A stretch of 27,000 nt of DNA. Origin: a virus. Lineage: Duplodnaviria; Heunggongvirae; Uroviricota; Caudoviricetes. How positions within the stretch are numbered: the stretch's first letter is position 1; every line of letters begins with the position of its first letter. Shown here piece after piece: positions 4,895-20,323 of this stretch. The translations under genes and the position numbers were made by a program. The notes beneath the pieces are model-generated. The model was not told where the DNA came from and did not search any database. It saw only the letters and a list, made by a program, of their open reading frames with translations. The stretch lies in IMG/VR virus record IMGVR_UViG_640753024_000008. The stretch is one strand, 5' to 3'.

Positions 4895-6466
4895 TTACTG
4901 AGAGCTCAGATCAACTTTCCAGGGCAACAGATCGCGTACCCGGTTTGCCGGCCAGTCCTGGATATGTTCAATGACGTAACGCAGCCACTTTTCTGACTCC
5001 ACATTGTTCAGACGGCATGTGCCGATCAGCGAGTACAACACCGCCGCATGTTCACCACCGCTGTCGGAACCCGCGAACATCCAGTTTTTCCGGCCTACGG
5101 CCACTCCCCGTAAGGCGTTCTCTGCGATGTTGTTGTCGATTTCCACCCAGCCATTACTGCAGTACACGTTCAGTGCATCCCACTGTTTCAGCAGGTATGC
5201 GAACGCTTTTGCCGTATCTGAGTGACGCGACAGTGTTTTCATCTGTTGCTGTATCCAGTCATACAGTGACTGCATCAGTGGCGCGGCTCTGGCTTTTCTT
5301 GCCGCCAGACGCTGTTCTGCTGAACAGCCCCGGACCTCTGCCTCGATGGCATACAGTTCACCGATACGCTGCAGGGCTTCCGTGGTGATGTAGGTGGGCG
5401 CTCTTGCATGCACATCGTGGATTTTTCTCCGGACATGAGCCATACACGCGGCTTCCGTTATTCTGCCGGATTCGTATAACGCCCGGTAACCACCGTAAGC
5501 ATCGGCCTGAAGCACACCGCTGTAACCGGCCAGGTGATTTTGTGGATGGATACCTTTCCGGTCCGGACTGTACGCGAACCAGACCGCCGGGGGCATCTGT
5601 GAACCGGCGTTACGGTCATCACGGACGTAGACCCACAGCCGGGCTGTCCGGGTTTTACCGCTGCCCGGCTCCTGGACCGGGACGGGGATATCATCAGCAT
5701 GGACTTTACCGGGCATCAGCACATACTGGCGCAGGACGTCATACAGCGGCTCCAGCAGTTCAGCAACAGCACCTGTCCAGCGCCCCAGTGTGGCACGGCT
5801 CAGCTCCACTCCCTGACGACGGTATATTTCTGACTGGCGGTATAACGGCAGATGGTCTGCATATTTCCCGGTGACAACATGGGCCAGAAGCCCCGCTCCG
5901 GCATAACTGCGTGCAATGGGTTTTGAAGGTACTGGTGCCTGCACGATATGGTCGCACCGGCAACAGGCCTGTTTCGGACGTTGTGTTTCGATAACCTTAA
6001 AGGCGCTGCTGATAAGCTCCAGTTGCTCTGACACATCACATCCCAGAGAACTGAGTTCACCACCACAGGCAGGACAGCATTCCTCTTCCGGCCGGATAAC
6101 CCGGGTTTCACGGGGAAGTGAGGCCGGTAACGGTTTACGGGCTGAAGACTGGCGCAGGGCGGATGGCAGTACCGGGTCATATTGCTCACCCAGCGTTTCC
6201 GCCATTTCTTCCTGAAGTGCGCTGATTCGCTCCTGTGCTTCCTGTATCTGCCGTTCGGTTTTTGCACGAAGTTTTTCTGAGCTTTTACCGAACTGCATAC
6301 GTTGCAGTTTCGCAACCAGCGCCTTCAGCCGGTTGATTTCGGAAGCATAAGCCGCCACCCGCTGTGAGAGCAGGCGGTTGTATTCAGCCATCTGGCGTAT
6401 GGTGTCCTGTTGCGTCTGCAACAGTGCCCGCAGGCGGGCGTTCTCATGAGCAAGTGAGGTGTCCAT
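4895..6466 (-). CDS. IS66-family transposase TnpC
   Basis: 523 aa with an N-terminal coiled-coil/leucine-zipper region, a Cys-rich zinc-ribbon (CPACG...CRCDH) and the conserved IS66 TnpC core. Confidence 0.9.
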
Positions 6467-6485
6467 ATCCTCACTTTACAACGGG

Positions 6486-6833
6486 TTATATGCGGATTCC
6501 AGCGCGTTCCGTTCGTTTCGGGTGCTTCCAGTTGATACCTTCAAGAAGCATGGATAACTGAGCCGGAGTAAGGTGCACCTTGCCGTCACGGGTGACTGGC
6601 CAGACGAAGCGGCCCCGCTCCAGGCGTTTGGTGAAGAGGCACAGTCCGTCACTGTCAGCCCACAACACTTTTATCTGGTCACCCCGGCGTCCGCGGAAGA
6701 TGAACAGGTGTCCGGAGAACGGGTCATCCTTCAGGACGTTCTGAACTTTTGATGCCAGGCCGTTAAAGCCATTTCGCATATCGGTGATACCTGCAACCAG
6801 CCAGATACGCGAACCTGCAGGGAGAGATATCAT
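6486..6833 (-). CDS. IS66 accessory protein TnpB (orfB)
   Basis: 115 aa, [20 protein letters not shown]... motif typical of IS66 orfB; overlaps orfA by 1 nt. Confidence 0.9.
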   Translation of the reverse strand: MISLPAGSRIWLVAGITDMRNGFNGLASKVQNVLKDDPFSGHLFIFRGRRGDQIKVLWADSDGLCLFTKRLERGRFVWPVTRDGKVHLTPAQLSMLLEGINWKHPKRTERAGIRI

Positions 6834-7297
6834 CAGTGGCTGCTCCCTTTTATTTCGCGGATAAGTGTCTGTAATAACGCCGGCGTCAGTTTACCTTTAA
6901 GCCTGAGAGTTCCGGCCGGCAGAACCAGCTCACAACACAGACTGTCGGACGGTGTATTTATCTGCTCTGGTTCCTGTGCGGGGGCCGGGATTTTATTATC
7001 CGGCTCCGGCGTTAACGTCACGGGAAGCAGTGCCGGCATATTTTTTCCGGAAGGCAGCAGGCCACCTTTCCGGTATTGATGGCGCCAGTTGAAGAGCAGG
7101 TTATCGTTGATTCCGTTTTCCCGGGCGATCTGCGCCACACAGGCTCCGGGCTGCAGTGACTGCTCCACTAAGGCGATTTTAAACTCATAAGGGAAGTTGG
7201 GCCGCCGGGGACGTTTTTTTACCACGGGGGCTTCGGATATAACGGTGCTTTCAGGACGTACGACTGGTATCGTGGAAAATTGGTAAGCGTGCAGCAA
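6833..7297 (-). CDS. IS66 orfA (true start unresolved)
   Basis: Homologous to copy-2 orfA (PEFK...GINDNLLFNWR). The called start is a TTG that lies inside the terminal repeat of the neighbouring element, so the real start is further downstream. Confidence 0.6.
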   Translation of the reverse strand: MLHAYQFSTIPVVRPESTVISEAPVVKKRPRRPNFPYEFKIALVEQSLQPGACVAQIARENGINDNLLFNWRHQYRKGGLLPSGKNMPALLPVTLTPEPDNKIPAPAQEPEQINTPSDSLCCELVLPAGTLRLKGKLTPALLQTLIREIKGSSH

Positions 7298-7319
7298 GAA
7301 CCGTATTGACGGGGATGTG

Positions 7320-8858
7320 TTATTCAGTCGGCAGTGCTACGCGCCAGGGGAGCAGTTCGCCGACCCGGTTTATCGGCCAGTCGGCTATGACGTCAAGGAC
7401 ATAGCGGAGGTAGCTTTCTGGCTCCACTCCGTTCAGTTTGCACGTCCCGATCAGGCTGTACAGCAGCGCTCCCCGCTCTCCTCCATGATCCGAACCGAAG
7501 AACAGGTAGTTTTTGCGGCCCAGACTGACCATCCGCAACGCATTTTCAGCGATGTTATTGTCCGCCTCAGCCCAGCCATCATCTGCATAGTACGTCAGCG
7601 CCGGCCACTGGTTCAGGGCGTATGCGAACGCTTTCGCCAGTTCTGAGTGTCGCGACAGGGTTTTCATCTTTTCACGCAACCAGCTTTCCAGGGATTTCAA
7701 CAGCGGTTTCGTTTTTCGCTGACGTTCAGCAAGCCGCTGCTCTGCCGGCATTCCCCTTATATCCGCCTCTATGGCGTACAACTGACCGATCTGCTCCAGG
7801 GCTTCTTCCGTCAGTGCTGACGGGATGCGGACGTGCACATCGTGGATCTTTCGGCGGGCATGAGCCCAGCAGGCAGCTTCCGTTATCCCACCATTGCGAT
7901 ACAGCTCGTTGAACCCGGCGTACGCATCCGCTTGCAGCACACCGCTGAAGCAGGCAAGATGAGTCTGCGGATGGATGCCTTTTCTGTCCGGGCTGTAAGC
8001 GAACCACACTGCAGGTGCCAACGCTGACCCGGCATTGCGGTCATCACGAACATACGCCCACAACCGCCCGGTCTTCGTCTTCTTATTACCCGGCAGCAGT
8101 ACCTGGACCGGGGTATCATCGGCATGGAGTTTGCCGTCAGTCATGACATAGCCATGAAGCGCCTCTTCCAGCGGAGACAGCAGCCGGCAGCATGCATCCA
8201 CCCAGCCCGACAGCAGTGAACGGCTCAGCTCCACACCTTGCCGGCCGTATATTTCTGACTGGCGATACAGCGGGGTGTGCTCTGCATACTTCGAGGTCAG
8301 CACGCGGGCCAGCAGCCCCGGTCCGGCGATACCCCGCTCGATGGGCCGCGAAGGTGCAGGTGCCTGCACGATGGCATCGCACTGAGTACAGGCATGTTTT
8401 TCCCGTACCGTCCGGATAACCCGGAAGGCACTACGCATCAACTCCAGCTGTTCGGCGGTATCCTCGCCCAGATAGCTCAGTGAACCGCCGCAGTTCGGGC
8501 AGCACGGCGCCGCAGGCAACAGTCGCTTTTCGTCACGGGGTAGTGATTCAGGGAACGGCTTACGGGTGCGGGTCTGACGCAACGGACGCTGTACAGCCGG
8601 GTCATACACCCTACCAGTCAGCGTATCGCTCTCTTTCTGAAGCCGGTTCAGATCGGCTTCCATTTGTGCGATACGGCGGGAGACTTTTTCGGAACGACTG
8701 CCGAAGTTCATCCGGCGGAGTTTATCCAGCTGCGCCTGCAGATGGTCTATTTCGCGCTCCCAGTTGCTCAGCTTTTCCTGCAGGGCGTGGATCAGCGCTT
8801 CCTGTTCGGCCAGGCGCTGTTTCAGCAGGAAGATGTCGTCAGAAGAGATGTCGTTCAT
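7320..8858 (-). CDS. IS66-family transposase TnpC
   Basis: 512 aa, same architecture as copy 1 but clearly divergent in sequence. Confidence 0.9.
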
Positions 8859-8907
8859 AAGCCCGTATTTTACCGGGCTTATTCTGTGACAACCAGGATA
8901 AAGAGAT

Positions 8908-9255
8908 TTACAGCATGGTCAGGGAGGTCAGCAACCGCTTGGGCTGTCGCCAGTCGATACCTTCCAGCAGCATCGCCAGCTGCGCCTGCGTAAGGAACAC
9001 TTTGCCATCACGGGCTGACGGCCAGGCGAAGCGCCCACGCTCCAGCCGTTTGGTCAGGAGGCACAGTCCGTCACCGGTGGACCACAGCAGTTTAACCTGA
9101 CTGCCGCTGCGGCCCCGGAAAATGAAAACATGGCCGGACATGGGATCGTCTTTCAGCGCCGTTTGTACTTTCGCAGCCAGGCCGTTGAAGCCATTTCTCA
9201 TATCGGTGATACCGGCAACCAGCCAAATTTTGGTCCCGGAAGGTAACGGGATCAT
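8908..9255 (-). CDS. IS66 accessory protein TnpB (orfB)
   Basis: 115 aa, [20 protein letters not shown]... Confidence 0.9.
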
Positions 9256-9653
9256 CGCTTCAGTTCCTGTATCAGCAGAGTCAGGAGCTTTTCGCTGACA
9301 TTGCCATTGAAGCGGAGCGTCCCGTGCCGGAACGTTACCTCACAGCTGATACTGAGGGTTTCCGGGTCCTCTGCGAGCGATTCTGGCTGTTCGGCAGCTG
9401 CATCGAGAGTCACAGGAAGTAGCTGGGGGCTCTCTGAAGAAGGTAATAGCAGCTTTCCCTCGCGCCATTGTTGTCGCCATTTGAACAACAGATTGGCGTT
9501 AATGCCATTTTCAAGAGCAAGTTTTGAGATGGATATCCCGGGTTCACAGGAGGCAGCAACGAGCTGCTGTTTAAATTCGGGAGGATAATTAGGGCAGCCT
9601 TTTCGCCTGCCGGGAGTCACATTTTTCTGCATATCTGACACTTTGGTTCCCAC
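9252..9653 (-). CDS. IS66 orfA
   Basis: 133 aa, overlaps orfB by 4 nt; helix-turn-helix-like GINANLLFKWR motif. Confidence 0.8.
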   Translation of the reverse strand: MGTKVSDMQKNVTPGRRKGCPNYPPEFKQQLVAASCEPGISISKLALENGINANLLFKWRQQWREGKLLLPSSESPQLLPVTLDAAAEQPESLAEDPETLSISCEVTFRHGTLRFNGNVSEKLLTLLIQELKR

Positions 9654-9922: not shown

Positions 9923-10141
9923 ATCCTCACCCCGATGTACACGGATGGTGCAATATGTTTGAAAAGATCGGAGTCTACGGGGTAGTTTTGACAGCACACG
10001 TTGTTCTCAACGGCGCTAAAGAAACATACACATTAAAAATGTGAGTAATTATTTTGAAAGAAAGTTATATATAAAATAATAATACGAGAAATGTTTTCAT
10101 ATTTAGTGTACTGTATACGGCCATTTATACAGGAAAAGCCT

Positions 10142-10312
10142 ATGTCAGAACGTAAAGACTCAAAATCACGCCGTAATTATCTCGTTAAATGTTCCTGCCC
10201 AAACTGCACCCAAGAGTCAGAACACAGTTTTTCAAGAGTACAAAAAGGAGCCCTTTTGATCTGCCCTCATTGCAACAAAGTATTCCAGACAAATCTTAAA
10301 GCTGTAGCCTGA
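10142..10312 (+). CDS. small zinc-ribbon protein (56 aa), hypothetical
   Basis: Internal ATG of ORF 10091..10312 preceded by AGGAAAA; CxxC...CxxC motif (CSCPNC...CPHC). Confidence 0.45.
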   Translation: MSERKDSKSRRNYLVKCSCPNCTQESEHSFSRVQKGALLICPHCNKVFQTNLKAVA

Positions 10313-10374
10313 TTGATTTTATTAGTAACAAGTATTTTTTATATTTTAATAATATATTTAAAGCAGATAATAAA

Positions 10375-10394
10375 AAACCCGCCTGAGCGGGTTT
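10375..10394. terminator. GC-rich hairpin (ACCCGC-ctga-GCGGGT) with an A-run on one side and a T-run on the other
   Basis: Hairpin seen in the sequence. The U-tract is better on the minus strand, so this may be a bidirectional terminator between the zinc-ribbon gene and cspB. Confidence 0.45.
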
Positions 10395-10675
10395 GAGATT
10401 GTGGTGCTTTTTGTGGGAGTCATCCACTTACGCACTTTGTTTTGCCATGCCAGCAGTTAGCTTCTGCTGTAAAACTATTCATGCAGCAAACCTGCACTTC
10501 ACCACAATGGTTAGCATACTTTTCCTGATTAAGATTTTGCCAAATATGCTGGCCATTGTTTCATGTATTGGACCTCCTTACTTTTTATTAAAGAGATCCA
10601 ATATTCACTACTCTGTCCGTATCTCTACTCAGGCATCAGCCTTCTTCGTTATCGTATACAGACGAGCGATGAATT

Positions 10676-10891
10676 TTAATCAGTAATGATGACATTTACT
10701 GCTGCAGGACCTTTAGCACCACTCTCTATAGAGAAGGTAACCTTTTGACCTTCAAATAAGGTTCGATAATTATCATTCTGAATCGCAGAAAAATGCACAA
10801 ACACATCTTTACTACCATCAACAGGAGAAATAAAGCCGAAACCTTTATCAGCGTTAAACCATTTTACTAAACCAGTCATTTTATTTGACAT
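10676..10891 (-). CDS. cspB: cold-shock protein (CspA family)
   Basis: 71 aa with [20 protein letters not shown]-1 motif and [11 protein letters not shown]-2 motif; position matches Qin cspB. Confidence 0.9.
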
Positions 10892-11201
10892 TCTACATTC
10901 CTTAACTTGAGCCTTTCGGCATAAATGGTTTGCATAACAGAAACGACTTCGTACTTAATTGGAGAGACTCAAAGAAGGAATAAGTGAATAACACCTGAAA
11001 TGAGAACTGCTTTAGTAAACTACTTCGTATATCGTCTGTTCTTCAAACCGACGCAGTCATTAACTCATAGTTGAACATATGAAGCAATGTTTATTTTAGA
11101 CATCCAGCCACCTTCAACCCTATCAACAAAGTAGTTTTCTCCAGGAACGTGTGTATGGTGCACCAGGTTATCAGTATTAAGGAGTTTTTCTGTCCCCTAA
11201 A

Positions 11202-14101: not shown

Positions 14102-14127
14102 AAAAACAAAAACCCGCCGAAGCGGGT
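14102..14127 (-). terminator. rho-independent terminator downstream of hokD
   Basis: Hairpin ACCCGC-cgaa-GCGGGT followed on the minus strand by TTTTTGTTTTT. Confidence 0.55.
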
Positions 14128-14196
14128 TAAGTGCGGGTGCGTTGAGGATGCCTGCCACATCAGAGGTGGCGAGGGATTTCTCCCTCGCCGGGTCTC

Positions 14197-14352
14197 TTAC
14201 TCCTCAGGTTCGTAAGCTGTGAAGACAGCGACCTCCGTCTGGCCGGTTCGGATTCGTACCTCGCAGAGGTCTTTCCTCGTTACCAGTGCCGTCACTATGA
14301 CGGTTAAACAGATGACGATCAGGGCGATTAACATCGCCTTTTGCTGCTTCAT
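14197..14352 (-). CDS. hokD: Hok-family membrane toxin (51 aa)
   Basis: MKQQKAMLIALIVICLTVIVTALVTRKDLCEVRIRTGQTEVAVFTAYEPEE. The ORF track extends this in frame by 19 codons (14197..14409). A 9-bp perfect hairpin lies in the 3' UTR at about 14168..14189. Confidence 0.85.
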   Translation of the reverse strand: MKQQKAMLIALIVICLTVIVTALVTRKDLCEVRIRTGQTEVAVFTAYEPEE

Positions 14353-15000
14353 AGCCTGCTTCTCCTTGCCTTCCGGCACGTAAGAGGCTAACCTACATGT
14401 GTCTAGCATGAAATTGGCCTCAGATTAATGTTAAGCGTCTTGCAGGACGCGTAATGTTAACTGGGGCTTTTCTCTATCTGCCTTTGGTGTTCATGCCCGA
14501 GGCAGATAGCCTCAAGCACCCGCAGCCATTCTACTTAACTACCTTTACCTCGCCAATATGAAATCAGTCAGAAAGGCGATCCATAAGAACAATAGCAAGA
14601 CAATAAATCGCCATTACAGCCGTAATAGCCAGCGCACATTTGAGAACCAGCACCACAACCTCCTGTATTGGACGTACACCAGTCCTGATAAATATGAGGC
14701 TGTCTCGTCCGTGATTCAATACAACTATTGGGTATGGTTTCTCTGATTTTTCTGTGGAAATGGAGCTCAACCACTAGTCACCACCAGCACTTCTTTTAAT
14801 ACGCAAAGTCCGACGCAAGCCAACAGGTTCAATTTCATATATATGAATTTTAAGCAGTATTCACCTACACGATTATTAGCAGTTTCCTGAATATATGATG
14901 GAGTGTCTTGACGATTTTAGACCAGAAACGCCCTCCACGTATTTCTGAGCGTACGCAACATATGTTATGGCAAATGCGAGCATATGGTAGAGTCAAATAA

Positions 15001-15028
15001 GTAAGAGCCACCCGCAGGTGGCTCTTAC
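15001..15028 (-). terminator. hairpin terminator directly after the 591-aa gene
   Basis: GTAAGAGCCACC-cgca-GGTGGCTCTTAC, a 12-bp stem starting 2 nt after the stop codon, followed on the minus strand by TTATTTGA. Confidence 0.55.
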
Positions 15029-15030
15029 TT

Positions 15031-16806
15031 TTACTCTTGCAATTCGATGATCTGCTCTTTACCTAGTAGATGATTAATAATATTTAATACTTTTTCTCTG
15101 TTCTGGAAGAATCTTGCTATATAACTATTGGGGAAGACTTCCTGTATGTGATTATAAGTATCAGAAGCCAGCTCTATACATTCCTCCAGTGAAACGTTTC
15201 GGCTATAAGAGAAGATGTGATTCTCCACAGAGGAAACTTCTATTTTATTCATGAGTATGGATATTAAAACATAATTTCCATGAATCATTATTTGATGAAT
15301 CTGCTTCTGATTTTCCATATCTACTGATAGTAGTTTAACTATACTTTCTTGCAATATATCATTTGCTAATCTATAAGCATTTACTTTATTTATTATATCC
15401 AAACCGGTAGGACCATTTTCAGCTGGGAATACTTTTTCATAAAGACCTCCCCAGCTTTCAAAAAAACGTCCTCTATTTAGTTTTAAGGAAGATATCAATG
15501 TTTCATCTTTAGAGGCACACACTAATGCGTTTAAAGCATCATCAATATCAATGGTATTACCACCTGTCTGGCTGGAGTCTTCTTGCCTGAGTAGTTTGTA
15601 GCTATATCCGCCAATAAAGTTTATTTCTCTTTGTATTCTTTGTTGCTCGGGCCTCTGTGATGAGAAATCTCTTCCAGTAACCCTGTTTTGTGTATTGTTG
15701 AATTTAGTGACAGAGGTTAAAAAATCTTCTTTTGCTGCACTGATAAATCTAATGCTCACCTTGATTAGATCTTTTTTTTCTTCGGGTAAAGAGTTGAACA
15801 CTTCACCAATAGTGCTTACAGTTTGAGCTCCATTTATTATACTCAGACTTTTAAAACTAAATAGCCCGTACTTCCTGCTTGTACTTAAGTTGATCATGCT
15901 TTCTTCTACATCACTATATACAGCAGTTATCCCATTGTTATAGTACCAAAAATTCTCCGGCTTTTCACTTAATGTTTTCTTTATCCCAGAGTTTATGGAT
16001 GAATTACCGAGGACACTTCTTATATTTTTCTCGAACAGAGAGTACTTGTACTTTTCCCACCAGTCGTATAGGATCCTTGCGGATATTGTTCCGTATATTG
16101 CTTTATAAGGTTCTGCTATCTCTCCATAACTTTCAAGGTGAACATTGCTAACATTTATAGATTTTGATCGATCATTAGAAAGACCATCCATTATCACTTG
16201 TATACCTGCCGGCTCGAATAGCACTGAATACTCATCTCTATTCTCTATATCTTTAAATAATAGAGACCGATTCTGAAGCTTTTCCCAAAACTCTATGTCT
16301 GATTTTACTTCTTCGCTTGGCTCATGAACCCCTGTATATATAAATACACATATACATTTATATGTAAATCCTGAGATTGCTTCAATTATGGAGTCTTTGT
16401 TTCTTAAAAACCTTTCGTTAAATGTTGTAAAGTCGCTGGCTATTACTTTTGCGCATGCGTCTTTGAATCTTCCGAATTCTCTTGTGGTTATAGAACCGTC
16501 GCCATTTTTAATATATTTTGACTGAACTATTACTATCTTTCTCGAATTTTTATTAACATAAACTGCATCTATCCCGCCATCATCTTTTCCATCGCAGACA
16601 GCATTAGCAGCTAACTCAGGGTCTGGTTCATCACCATACAAGCTGATTGCATGCGCAGCTACACAGCGTGTAATTAGAGTTTCTTTCCTATGCTCTCCTA
16701 CGGAATTAATATCTTTCATATCAATAAAAGTTCCGTATATAGACTCTAATTGATTAGTTATGCGTACTAAACCTGCTGTTTGCGTGGCTTTGTCGTACTG
16801 GGACAT
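15031..16806 (-). CDS. AT-rich cargo gene: 591-aa protein with N-terminal PD-(D/E)xK-like (Mrr-type) nuclease motif; candidate anti-phage defence or abortive-infection protein
   Basis: Uninterrupted 1776-nt ORF with AGGAG about 8 nt upstream of the ATG and a TATAAT-like element about 40 nt upstream. Residues D72..D75-D76-G-G-I-D80 and I-V-I-V-Q95-S-K97 fit a restriction-endonuclease-like core. No Walker A and no YxDD motif. G+C is about one third (39 of 120 in the sample I counted), against roughly half in the flanks. Confidence 0.75.
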   Translation of the reverse strand: MSQYDKATQTAGLVRITNQLESIYGTFIDMKDINSVGEHRKETLITRCVAAHAISLYGDEPDPELAANAVCDGKDDGGIDAVYVNKNSRKIVIVQSKYIKNGDGSITTREFGRFKDACAKVIASDFTTFNERFLRNKDSIIEAISGFTYKCICVFIYTGVHEPSEEVKSDIEFWEKLQNRSLLFKDIENRDEYSVLFEPAGIQVIMDGLSNDRSKSINVSNVHLESYGEIAEPYKAIYGTISARILYDWWEKYKYSLFEKNIRSVLGNSSINSGIKKTLSEKPENFWYYNNGITAVYSDVEESMINLSTSRKYGLFSFKSLSIINGAQTVSTIGEVFNSLPEEKKDLIKVSIRFISAAKEDFLTSVTKFNNTQNRVTGRDFSSQRPEQQRIQREINFIGGYSYKLLRQEDSSQTGGNTIDIDDALNALVCASKDETLISSLKLNRGRFFESWGGLYEKVFPAENGPTGLDIINKVNAYRLANDILQESIVKLLSVDMENQKQIHQIMIHGNYVLISILMNKIEVSSVENHIFSYSRNVSLEECIELASDTYNHIQEVFPNSYIARFFQNREKVLNIINHLLGKEQIIELQE

Positions 16807-17432
16807 CCTTTGCGCTCCTGAACATGTAACAAAATATGATTCGCATTATAAGATTTTTTAATGTTTAGCCGAAGAGTTTTTTGCATGAGTTATGACATAA
16901 GTTTAGTTCGTAGTTCTGCGATATAGTTTTCTCCTGAAAACAAAAAACATCTGGGGCATGAGGTGAGCTCCGAAAGTTGGACATCTCAACGATTATGTCA
17001 AGAGCGTCTACTGGGACGTGGTCTGTGTAAACGGTCACTCCTAGTACAAAGCAGACAACAATGCCAGTTTTAATCTAATCCTATACAACAGAAATGTCAT
17101 TTCACATTTGAACTAATGCACTTTAATATCGTTACTTCAAAATGCTGAACATTTCCCTGATAAAACGCCAGTATGCGTTGCATCACTTCGCTCTTCCGGC
17201 ACTCGCGACAGATTATGTTTAGACGACTGTCGTAGCGACGTATTTCTCCGTCAGGTAATGACCAGATAAGGTCCGGATCAACCACAGCAGGTTTCTTCAC
17301 CTTTGCCCTCGAGAGTTTTTTGCGGGCGTTTTGCCAGTCCTTACGCGCCTGTTCAGACGGGAATAACTGATCTTACCCAGCAATAGTGGACACGCGGCTA
17401 AGTGAGTAAACTCTCAGTCAGAGGTGACTCAC

Positions 17433-17732
17433 ATGACAAAAACAGTATCAACCAGTAAAAAACCCCGTAAACAGCATTCGCCTGAATTTCGCAGTGAAGC
17501 CCTGAAGCTTGCTGAACGCATCGGTGTTACTGCCGCAGCCCGTGAACTCAGCCTGTATGAATCACAACTCTACAACTGGCGCAGTAAACAGCAAAATCAG
17601 CAGACGTCTTCTGAACGTGAACTGGAGATGTCTACCGAGATTGCACGTCTCAAACGCCAGCTGGCAGAACGGGATGAAGAGCTGGCTATCCTCCAAAAGG
17701 CCGCGACATACTTCGCGAAGCGCCTGAAATGA
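17433..17732 (+). CDS. insE: IS3 OrfA (helix-turn-helix protein)
   Basis: [32 protein letters not shown]... recalled IS3 InsE sequence; the ORF track begins 3 codons earlier at a GTG. Confidence 0.9.
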
Positions 17733-18505
17733 AGTACGTCTTTATTGAAAAACATCAGGCTGAGTTCAGCATCAAAGCAATGTGCCGCGTGCTCCGGGTG
17801 GCCCGCAGCGGCTGGTATACGTGGTGTCAGCGGCGGACAAGGATAAGCACGCGTCAGCAGTTCCGCCAACACTGCGACAGCGTTGTCCTCGCGGCTTTTA
17901 CCCGGTCAAAACAGCGTTACGGTGCCCCACGCCTGACGGATGAACTGCGTGATCAGGGTTACCCCTTTAACGTAAAAACCGTGGCGGCAAGCCTGCGCCG
18001 TCAGGGACTGAGGGCAAAGGCCTCCCGGAAGTTCAGCCCGGTCAGCTACCGCGCACACGGCCTGCCTGTGTCAGAAAATCTGTTGGAGCAGGATTTTTAC
18101 GCCAGTGGCCCGAACCAGAAGTGGGCAGGAGACATCACGTACTTACGTACAGATGAAGGCTGGCTGTATCTGGCAGTGGTCATTGACCTGTGGTCACGTG
18201 CCGTTATTGGCTGGTCAATGTCGCCACGCATGACGGCGCAACTGGCCTGCGATGCCCTGCAGATGGCGCTGTGGCGGCGTAAGAGGCCCCGGAACGTTAT
18301 CGTTCACACGGACCGTGGAGGCCAGTACTGTTCAGCAGATTATCAGGCGCAACTGAAGCGGCATAATCTGCGTGGAAGTATGAGCGCAAAAGGTTGCTGC
18401 TACGATAATGCCTGCGTGGAAAGCTTCTTTCATTCGCTGAAAGTGGAATGTATCCATGGAGAACACTTTATCAGCCGGGAAATAATGCGGGCAACGGTGT
18501 TTTAA
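17729..18505 (+). CDS. insF: IS3 OrfB (DDE transposase), C-terminally truncated by a frameshift
   Basis: 258 aa ending ...REIMRATVF. The expected last 30 or so residues ([30 protein letters not shown]) are in the +1 frame after a run of four T at about 18500..18503. Confidence 0.85.
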
Positions 18506-18855
18506 TTATATCGAATGTGATTACAATCGGTGGCGGCGGCACAGTTGGTGTGGCGGCCTCAGTCCGGAACAATTTGAAAACCAGAACCTCGCTTAGGCCT
18601 GTGTCCATATTACGTGGGTAGGATCATAACCCGTAACCAGAGCTGTATACATCGCCACTGGCAACCAGCTCTCTGGCCAGAACGCTCATCAGATATCTTG
18701 TTGCCCCAGTTTTAGCTTCCAGTTGTCGTAACGTCTCGCGCCCACTCTGGCGTACGAGTTCCACCACCTGCCCTTTAATTTTTTCCCGCTCTTCTTGTGT
18801 AAAAACTTTTGCCACAAGTCCTCCTGAACATTACTTTATGCCCTAAAATCAACAC

Positions 18856-19821: not shown

Positions 19822-20323
19822 AATTCCATCCAGCTTTTTGTTGGTATTGCTGTCGATACGCAAGCTTGAAAGCAATTGCTTTTTCTATAAGTTCGTCAGT
19901 TTCACGATCTACAACGGCAGGATCTGCAAAAAGCAGTCCGGACTCCACCACATCGCCATATTCTTTATTTAACCCAGCGATCATGTACGTAATGCTCTTT
20001 CCGTCACTAATTTCACGATACAACCTGAAATCACTAATCCGGATAGCCTCCATAATTGCAGGCACTAGCGCTGTGAACTTTTCACGCTTATCCCTGGTGT
20101 CGATAGCCTTCCAGCGTTCAAATATCTTCACTCGATTAACGCTAAGCGCTCGCTGATCAACCGCGCCACCTTCATATGTGACACGCTGAACATCGATGTT
20201 CGGGCGCTCTTTCAAAGCCCAGAATGCTTCAGTGATTAATATCGTCGCCTGCTCCTGTGTCATTCCTGGTCGACATATCCAGGCATCCAGAGCCTCACGA
20301 GCCTGTTCAGGAGTGATTTTCAT
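19802..20323 (-). CDS. YdaT-like phage protein (173 aa)
   Basis: Second gene of the leftward early operon after dicC, as ydaT follows ydaS in Rac (recalled); only loose similarity from memory. Confidence 0.4.
   Translation of the reverse strand: MKITPEQAREALDAWICRPGMTQEQATILITEAFWALKERPNIDVQRVTYEGGAVDQRALSVNRVKIFERWKAIDTRDKREKFTALVPAIMEAIRISDFRLYREISDGKSITYMIAGLNKEYGDVVESGLLFADPAVVDRETDELIEKAIAFKLAYRQQYQQKAGWNYEPSFC

Follow-up and report, generated by a model that had tools for sequence, protein, structure and literature searches.

An AIPR/AbiU-family gene as plausible anti-phage cargo of a Qin-type prophage of Escherichia coli

Since 2001–2013 the AbiU1/AIPR/COG1479 group has been discussed as one in which nucleases are fused to a ParB-like domain (PMC3632139). 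In the summary of Dai (2001) that is given in a 2026 review (PMC13064643), AbiU1 is protective in Lactococcus by itself and causes a delay in phage transcription. The same review describes AbiU as FokI-like in a structure model, and AbiU-1 has been placed within the PD-(D/E)XK superfamily (PMC13099982). A Vibrio AbiU system has been validated and is countered by the phage anti-defence protein Surt (bioRxiv 10.1101/2024.06.14.598830). The AIPR/AbiU family is present in every defence catalogue. Its recorded phenotypes are limited to a weak protection of Lactococcus with a delay in phage transcription, a Vibrio system that was validated and an E. coli paralogue that fell short of validation. Here, we describe a member of this family in a 27 000-nucleotide stretch of Caudoviricetes DNA (IMG/VR record IMGVR_UViG_640753024_000008; hereafter the window). 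It is encoded on the minus strand by an intact open reading frame (ORF) of 1776 nt (15031–16806) with an ATG start and a TAA stop, and has 591 amino acids (WP_000084873.1). The interval around the ORF (14410–17100) matches E. coli O139:H28 E24377A (NC_009801.1) at 100% identity, and in this genome the host element is annotated as a Qin-type cryptic lambdoid prophage between ydfJ and rspB. We regard the protein as a plausible anti-phage gene product. The reading that we favour, with moderate confidence, is that the ORF would be a prophage-borne moron for a single-polypeptide AbiU1/AIPR anti-phage protein, expressed in the lysogen and acting as a phage-triggered nuclease gated by a ParB-like domain.

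Family membership was established using profile searches. RefSeq names the protein 'AIPR family protein', and Pfam AIPR (PF10592) matches it with 115.7 bits against a cut-off of 25 (E = 4.5e-33; residues 258–413 on model positions 1–158 of 308). The same Pfam model matches all 45 homologues (45/45) in the alignment used for conservation, which spans 30–85% identity; a second alignment of distant members reaches down to 18% identity. PHROG 1841 ('Abi alpha-like abortive infection mechanism', category moron) matches over the full length (E = 5e-103). The PADLOC AbiU model (PDLC02357) gives a partial match (E = 5.1e-24; positions 44–366 of 537, 60% of the model); for comparison, lactococcal AbiU matches positions 1–532 of this model with E = 1.2e-177. 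At E ≤ 1e-5, 1136 homologues were found, most of about 590 residues. A first-pass annotation had singled out the ORF as the best candidate for an anti-phage defence system not yet described, and had added that the protein was 'possibly' of the AIPR/Abi type. The hedge was correct and the claim of novelty fails, since the protein is already covered by RefSeq, Pfam, PADLOC and PHROG; by its profile matches it belongs to a catalogued abortive-infection family. The ORF itself is real and its residue numbering had been given exactly.

Other assignments were tried and rejected. The 591-residue protein contains no Walker A motif and no YxDD, as had been noted at first pass, and this removes a P-loop NTPase and a reverse transcriptase from consideration. 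Matches to MzaE (E = 8e-16 and 7e-15 over residues 242–396) are weaker than those to AbiU. Membership of MZA was rejected: the NCBIfam equivalog NF041935 scores 57.6 bits against a cut-off of 1050, and the MzaA–D partners are absent, the neighbours being hokD and DUF977. The weak Pfam matches to EF-hand, Kiwellin and AAA_31 are sub-threshold noise. The PDB was searched by sequence, using as query either the protein or the 45-sequence profile, and nothing was returned even at E ≤ 10.

The N-terminal region (residues 1–214; 16165–16806, minus strand) comprises a helical lead-in and a domain with a restriction-endonuclease-like fold in the predicted structure, of the Mrr/MspJI/FokI type. Its nearest structural relatives include AspBHI and MspJI, and the structure model resembles FokI. 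The candidate catalytic segment (16516–16593, minus strand) contains D72, D75, D76, G77, G78, I79 and D80, followed by I91-V-I-V-Q95-S-K97. Residues D72, D76, D80, V94, Q95 and K97 are invariant in the 45 homologues; D75, which had been listed as part of the motif at first pass, is conserved in only 18 of them. Down to 18% identity D76 and D80 remain invariant, and QxK is kept in seven of the eight distant members, lactococcal AbiU included. Comparison with EcoKMrr using hhalign aligned the motif alone (39% identical over 44 columns), such that the segment faces GDGGID...VQAK and D76, D80, Q95 and K97 are paired with EcoKMrr D199, D203, Q219 and K221. The Mrr-type PD-(D/E)xK signature that had been read from the letters is thus borne out by an invariant D...QxK on a predicted PD-(D/E)xK fold. 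We assign the domain as a putative Mrr-type PD-(D/E)xK nuclease on the basis of its fold and motif, not of profile membership, and we infer the activity itself. A distant AIPR variant that is common on Klebsiella plasmids (pMB8806_2; L012, 2423–4123) has QGY in place of QxK, a change that may have inactivated or rewired the N-terminal nuclease of this variant.

The AIPR core (residues 215–415; 15562–16164, minus strand) has a ParB/sulfiredoxin-like fold in the predicted structure, and its fold matches include BrxU and SspE. Invariant in the core are KNIR263, NNGIT290–294, NGAQT325–329, R353, NNxQN370–374 and RDF379–381. The motif N325-G-A-Q-T329 ends in a threonine and has no arginine. The DUF262 enzymes differ here in having DGQQR, which we take to be the counterpart of NGAQT; in ParB-CTPase-like and DUF262-like folds the phosphate-binding arginine belongs to a GxxR or DGQQR motif. 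The equivalence to this Box II motif is drawn from the motifs and not from a structural superposition. The remaining part of the protein (residues 416–591; 15034–15561, minus strand) is a C-terminal α-helical domain with invariant C430, K442, G446, H509, F567 and K572, which is confidently modelled and gave no fold match. A HEPN domain was rejected because the histidine of the string RCVAAH is not conserved and no HEPN occurs among the fold matches, although an older paper ascribes an N-terminal HEPN domain to AIPR proteins (PMC3506569). Among the Pfam profiles that had been named at first pass, AIPR exceeds its threshold and Mrr_cat does not; Mrr_cat_2 likewise stays below threshold. The invariance of the motifs across homologues down to 30% identity indicates purifying selection.

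The strongest family-wide conservation, which extends to 18% identity, lies in the core (N261, R263, NNG, NGxQT, N371 and Q373). The ParB-like AIPR domain could therefore be imagined as the effector itself, as a nuclease or NTPase, with the Mrr-like domain serving mainly in DNA binding or oligomerization; the lysine of QxK is lost in the QGY variant of the Klebsiella plasmid, and Makarova et al. speak of a 'ParB superfamily nuclease domain'. We consider this very improbable, as D76 and D80 equal the core motifs in invariance, QxK is lost in only one of the eight distant members and the N-terminal motif corresponds to the core of Mrr. In addition, the main role now ascribed to ParB folds is that of NTP-binding switches, which vary in their nucleotide specificity (PMC12704722).

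The fold assignments also bear on another possibility, namely that the protein destroys modified phage DNA directly, as a modification-dependent (type IV) restriction enzyme rather than by abortive infection. The AIPR domain would then sense in an NTP-dependent manner, as DUF262 does in GmrSD, BrxU and SspE, and the Mrr/MspJI-like domain would cut. The structural neighbours AspBHI and MspJI are modification-dependent, the motif aligns with EcoKMrr, and among the ParB-fold matches are BrxU, which is a type IV enzyme, and SspE, which senses phosphorothioate. Set against these resemblances, neither Pfam nor fold searches detected an SRA-like or other modified-base reader domain, GmrSD differs in domain order and nuclease type, and NGAQT is without the arginine of DGQQR. 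Lactococcal AbiU, moreover, delays transcription and is weakly active against ordinary lactococcal phages, of which three groups are affected (PMC13064643). On this evidence a type IV enzyme seems unlikely, and the phage-triggered, ParB-gated nuclease is retained as the preferred reading.

The limits of the cassette that carries the gene were located as homology breaks against two Qin-like prophages, those of E. coli R1 (L003; NZ_CP031706.1) and E. coli 118UI (L004; NZ_CP032515.1). Homology with both stops at 14824 and restarts at 17038/17046, which defines a variable, low-GC, single-gene cassette of about 2.2 kb at 14825–17037. The first-pass interval of 14410–17100 contains the cassette and is too wide, since 14410–14824 is part of hokD/sok, a conserved locus. 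When K-12 is compared, homology is lost at 14366, 14 nt ahead of the start codon of hokD, and is regained only at 20044; the comparison with K-12 therefore overestimates the size of the cargo, the flanks of R1 and 118UI matching more closely. The cassette contains the AIPR ORF alone, plus its own signals. Two small unannotated ORFs of 48 and 57 residues were also seen within it (14865–15011 and 16865–17038, respectively). The G+C content is 35% for the cassette and 35.2% for the ORF (30.4% at third codon positions), compared with 47–52% for the neighbouring prophage genes and 46.9% for the window. The count of 39 G+C in 15031–15150 that had been offered as a sign of separate acquisition is exact. 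No direct or inverted terminal repeats were found at 14825 or 17037. This lends no support to transposition or to insertion at a specific site, and mosaic recombination is the likelier origin; from its sequence the cassette looks like a product of recombinational mosaicism.

The expression signals were read from the sequence. A Shine–Dalgarno element AGGAG (16815–16819, minus strand) lies 8 nt upstream of the ATG, and a TATAAT −10-like hexamer preceded by an A-rich tract (16845–16850, minus strand) lies 38 nt upstream; both had been pointed out at first pass, the hexamer at about 40 nt. Directly after the stop codon there is a perfect hairpin with a 4-nt loop (14999–15030, minus strand; ΔG = −30.3 kcal mol−1, z = −6.9 versus shuffles). 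Its stem is 14 bp and not the 12 bp given earlier, and it is a possible terminator or mRNA stabilizer. With a ribosome-binding site, a −10 box and a hairpin of its own, the AIPR ORF is, as judged from these signals, a stand-alone unit.

Relatives of the protein recur as lone genes on prophages, phages and small plasmids, which likewise marks the gene as a stand-alone unit. The gene for a homologue with 35% identity stands alone between the replication genes and NinB/RusA/Q of another lambdoid prophage, an equivalent slot. A homologue with 59% identity is found alone in Pectobacterium, beside CcdA/HTH remnants, and on 5.6-kb mobilizable plasmids of Klebsiella and Salmonella a homologue, also with 59% identity, is the only cargo besides a RelE-type toxin–antitoxin pair. 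In the Klebsiella plasmid NZ_CP138750.1 (5627 bp; L010, 1892–3652) the AIPR gene shares 14 nt with the 3′ end of the replication-initiator gene rep, an overlap that suggests joint transcription of the two genes; the plasmids found in Salmonella are near-identical, also of 5.6 kb. In the temperate Aggregatibacter phage S1249 (L014, 1796–4177) the gene for a homologue with 31% identity lies 25 nt downstream of that for a CI-like repressor and is co-oriented with it. A position right after a CI-like repressor is classic for lysogen-expressed genes and resembles lambda cI–rexAB. This layout suggests by analogy that the S1249 homologue is expressed in the lysogen.

For the protein of the Qin-type prophage we propose the following mechanism, by analogy with the described systems and with the predicted folds. 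The lysogen would express the gene from its own promoter, and the nuclease (D80...Q95-x-K97, supported by D72 and D76) would be held inactive. A cue of infection, which might be the state of a nucleotide, a protein of the phage or a structure in its DNA, would be sensed by the ParB-like domain, the C-terminal domain or both, and would free or dimerize the nuclease such that DNA is cut. Cleavage would block both the transcription and the replication of the phage, and the cell might be lost in the process; the outcome may or may not be abortive. This reading is supported by the protection afforded by AbiU1 alone, by the validated Vibrio AbiU system and by the role of ParB folds as NTP switches.

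Several observations weigh against it. Lactococcal AbiU protects only 10- to 100-fold (PMC13064643), and pFR77, the closest tested relative in E. coli, figures only among the 'additional tested systems' of a study with eight coliphages and is missing from its validated set (PMC9122126). Between the present protein and lactococcal AbiU only the AIPR core aligns significantly (36% identity over 106 residues in BLASTP; hhalign columns 266–394). The hhalign match to EcoKMrr is weak (E = 0.019, probability 2.4%), and Pfam Mrr_cat_2 is sub-threshold (12.9–14.1 bits versus 22), with weak matches in six of the 45 members. The structure model has a predicted TM-score (pTM) of 0.45 and the arrangement between its domains is uncertain. 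As regards expression, no good −35 hexamer was seen for the TATAAT at 16845–16850, and a two-hexamer consensus promoter scan did not list the promoter for this reason; the U-tract that follows the hairpin on the strand of the gene is poor (AUUUGAC). Finally, the host prophage is decayed and some copies of the gene in other genomes are broken.

The last points raise the question of whether the strain has a working defence gene at all. Among the complete genomes of E. coli (5426 in number) the ORF was found in 39, always chromosomal, in single copy and at least 99% identical. A few of these copies are split, one is interrupted by an IS3 insertion sequence (IS) and one is a 262-bp remnant, while most carry a single AIPR annotation; in strain SW070912 an IS3-family transposase is annotated inside the ORF. 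The gene could on these grounds be a silent passenger of a decaying prophage, or a selfish stabilizing or toxin-like element that benefits the mobile element. The scarcity of the gene and its broken copies, the many IS66 and IS3 insertions in the prophage, the promoter without a −35 hexamer, the P4 AIPR paralogue (pFR77) without validated protection and the homologue on the 5.6-kb plasmid, which overlaps rep and adjoins a RelE-type toxin–antitoxin pair, all fit such a passenger. The ORF is nevertheless intact, the invariance of its functional motifs points to purifying selection and most of the 39 copies have a single AIPR annotation. The recurrence of lone genes at classic moron and exclusion positions and the two validations of AbiU-type systems also argue for a working gene. 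We therefore judge a passenger to be rather improbable, and keep to the anti-phage nuclease as the preferred reading.

The position of the cassette in the prophage is occupied by other genes in other strains. In K-12 the Qin prophage has relE–relB–ydfV–flxA after hokD, as had been stated at first pass. In strain R1 and 37 other genomes the slot between hokD and DUF977 contains an orphan gene for a 195-residue protein (WP_024242771.1; L003, 2736–3323), for which no Pfam, PADLOC or PHROG match was found and which is possibly an uncharacterized defence or moron gene. In strain 118UI and 152 other genomes it contains, on the opposite strand, a gene for a 595-residue DUF7380–DUF4209 protein (WP_000340970.1; L004, 2828–4615) that matches the PADLOC phage defence candidate PDC-S39 (E = 8e-103). 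Conserved flanks thus enclose unrelated alternative cargo across genomes, and to judge from these comparisons the slot between hokD/sok and DUF977 behaves like a small defence-cargo hotspot. The first-pass proposal that a single gene was acquired horizontally, as cargo at a variable site of the prophage, is supported by the cassette bounds, the base composition and the alternative occupants, and the predicted polymorphism, with the gene present in some Qin-like prophages and absent from others, is confirmed. If this is a true hotspot, PDC-S39 and the orphan 195-residue protein would be new defence genes.

Both flanks lie outside the cassette. The left flank (14197–14824, minus strand) is conserved in R1 and 118UI and consists of hokD (14197–14352), the sok antisense RNA region and a conserved leader. 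A full-length sok antitoxin RNA is present in E24377A at 14347–14521 on the minus strand (Rfam RF01794, 117 bits). In K-12, relE begins at the point where homology ends, 14 nt ahead of the start codon of hokD. Since E24377A keeps sok and the leader while the homology with K-12 ends at this point, the control of hokD would differ between the two versions of Qin. A sub-threshold Rfam match to the Hfq-binding small RNA isrK lies between rem and hokD (14107–14188, minus strand; 25.7 bits versus a gathering score of 50, E = 0.011). The right end of the cassette adjoins the stop codon of the DUF977 gene, assigned by annotation and Pfam DUF977, the 3′ part of which forms the right flank (17038–17367, minus strand). 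An IS3 element of 1258 bp with a frameshifted transposase (17368–18625) splits this gene immediately upstream of the AIPR cassette, and homology breaks at 17367 and 18626.

The prophage of E24377A is clearly defective. It is annotated with two copies of IS66 and one of IS3 and is badly damaged; the two IS66-family copies (tnpA/B/C) are in tandem and break the terminase–holin region (window positions 4895–9632), and ydfJ is truncated at the prophage edge. Other low-GC patches (34–38% GC) were seen at 10001–11000 and 1501–2500 of the window, around ynfU/cspB and ynfT/ydfK, respectively, and are likely to be further imported segments of the same prophage.

Among the known systems that can be compared, the single-protein PD-(D/E)XK defence nuclease Upx (1212 residues; Nat Commun 2026, PMC13099982) has two nuclease domains and no AIPR domain, and its likeness to the E24377A protein is limited to the nuclease fold. 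Mrr, MspJI, AspBHI and FokI pair their nuclease with a winged-helix, SRA-like or FokI recognition domain, whereas the partners here are a ParB-like AIPR domain and a helical domain. With MzaE of MZA the AIPR core is common to both proteins, and the MzaA–D partners are missing here because the cassette holds one gene. ParB-fold domains control nucleases in GmrSD, BrxU and SspE. The present protein resembles these defence proteins in joining a ParB/sulfiredoxin-fold domain and a nuclease domain in one polypeptide, and differs from them in that the order of the domains is reversed, the nuclease is PD-(D/E)xK rather than HNH-like DUF1524 and no sequence similarity is detectable. A broader and more tentative idea, to which we give less credence than to the preferred reading, is that AIPR/AbiU, the clade of the Qin slot included, might form a distinct mechanistic class, and that the hokD–DUF977 junction of Qin-like prophages might be an uncatalogued defence hotspot. 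Members of the class would be an inverted-architecture counterpart of GmrSD, in which a single chain carries an Mrr-like nuclease and a divergent ParB/sulfiredoxin nucleotide switch with threonine in place of the phosphate-binding arginine, the trigger being read by the C-terminal domain.

No new category of defence system is opened by this gene, and its value is incremental, with the addition of a pointer to a small prophage hotspot with two uncharacterized alternative genes. The E. coli copy is nevertheless a convenient model for ParB-like control of a restriction-type nuclease, because it combines a sharply bounded 2.2-kb cassette, its own signals, invariant residues and natural empty or alternative alleles. 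Among E. coli proteins it can be set beside pFR77 (WP_032211572; Rousset et al., 2022) from the hotspot of P4 satellites, which is likewise a single-gene cassette in a hotspot of a mobile element, is 35% identical over residues 15–410 and has the same architecture with all motifs conserved. The two differ in hotspot (psu–int in P4) and in clade. Lactococcal AbiU comes from another host phylum, and is carried on a plasmid and not on a lambdoid prophage. An AbiU2 (HEPN) neighbour is also missing from the cassette; this does not exclude membership of AbiU, since defence does not require AbiU2, as the review states (PMC13064643). With AbiU of Lactococcus lactis (AbiU1, AbiUi; Dai et al., 2001), the 'AbiU' of PADLOC and DefenseFinder, the protein otherwise has in common its length (591 versus 589 residues), its occurrence as a single protein borne by a mobile element and the order of its parts: an N-terminal DGGxD...QSK (DGGCD...IIQSK in lactococcal AbiU), an AIPR core with NNGIT and NGxQT, and a helical C-terminus. 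The N-terminal domains were not aligned in the hhalign profile comparison, the shared motif being seen by direct reading and in the multiple alignment. In structure models both proteins are FokI-like (for AbiU, PMC13064643).

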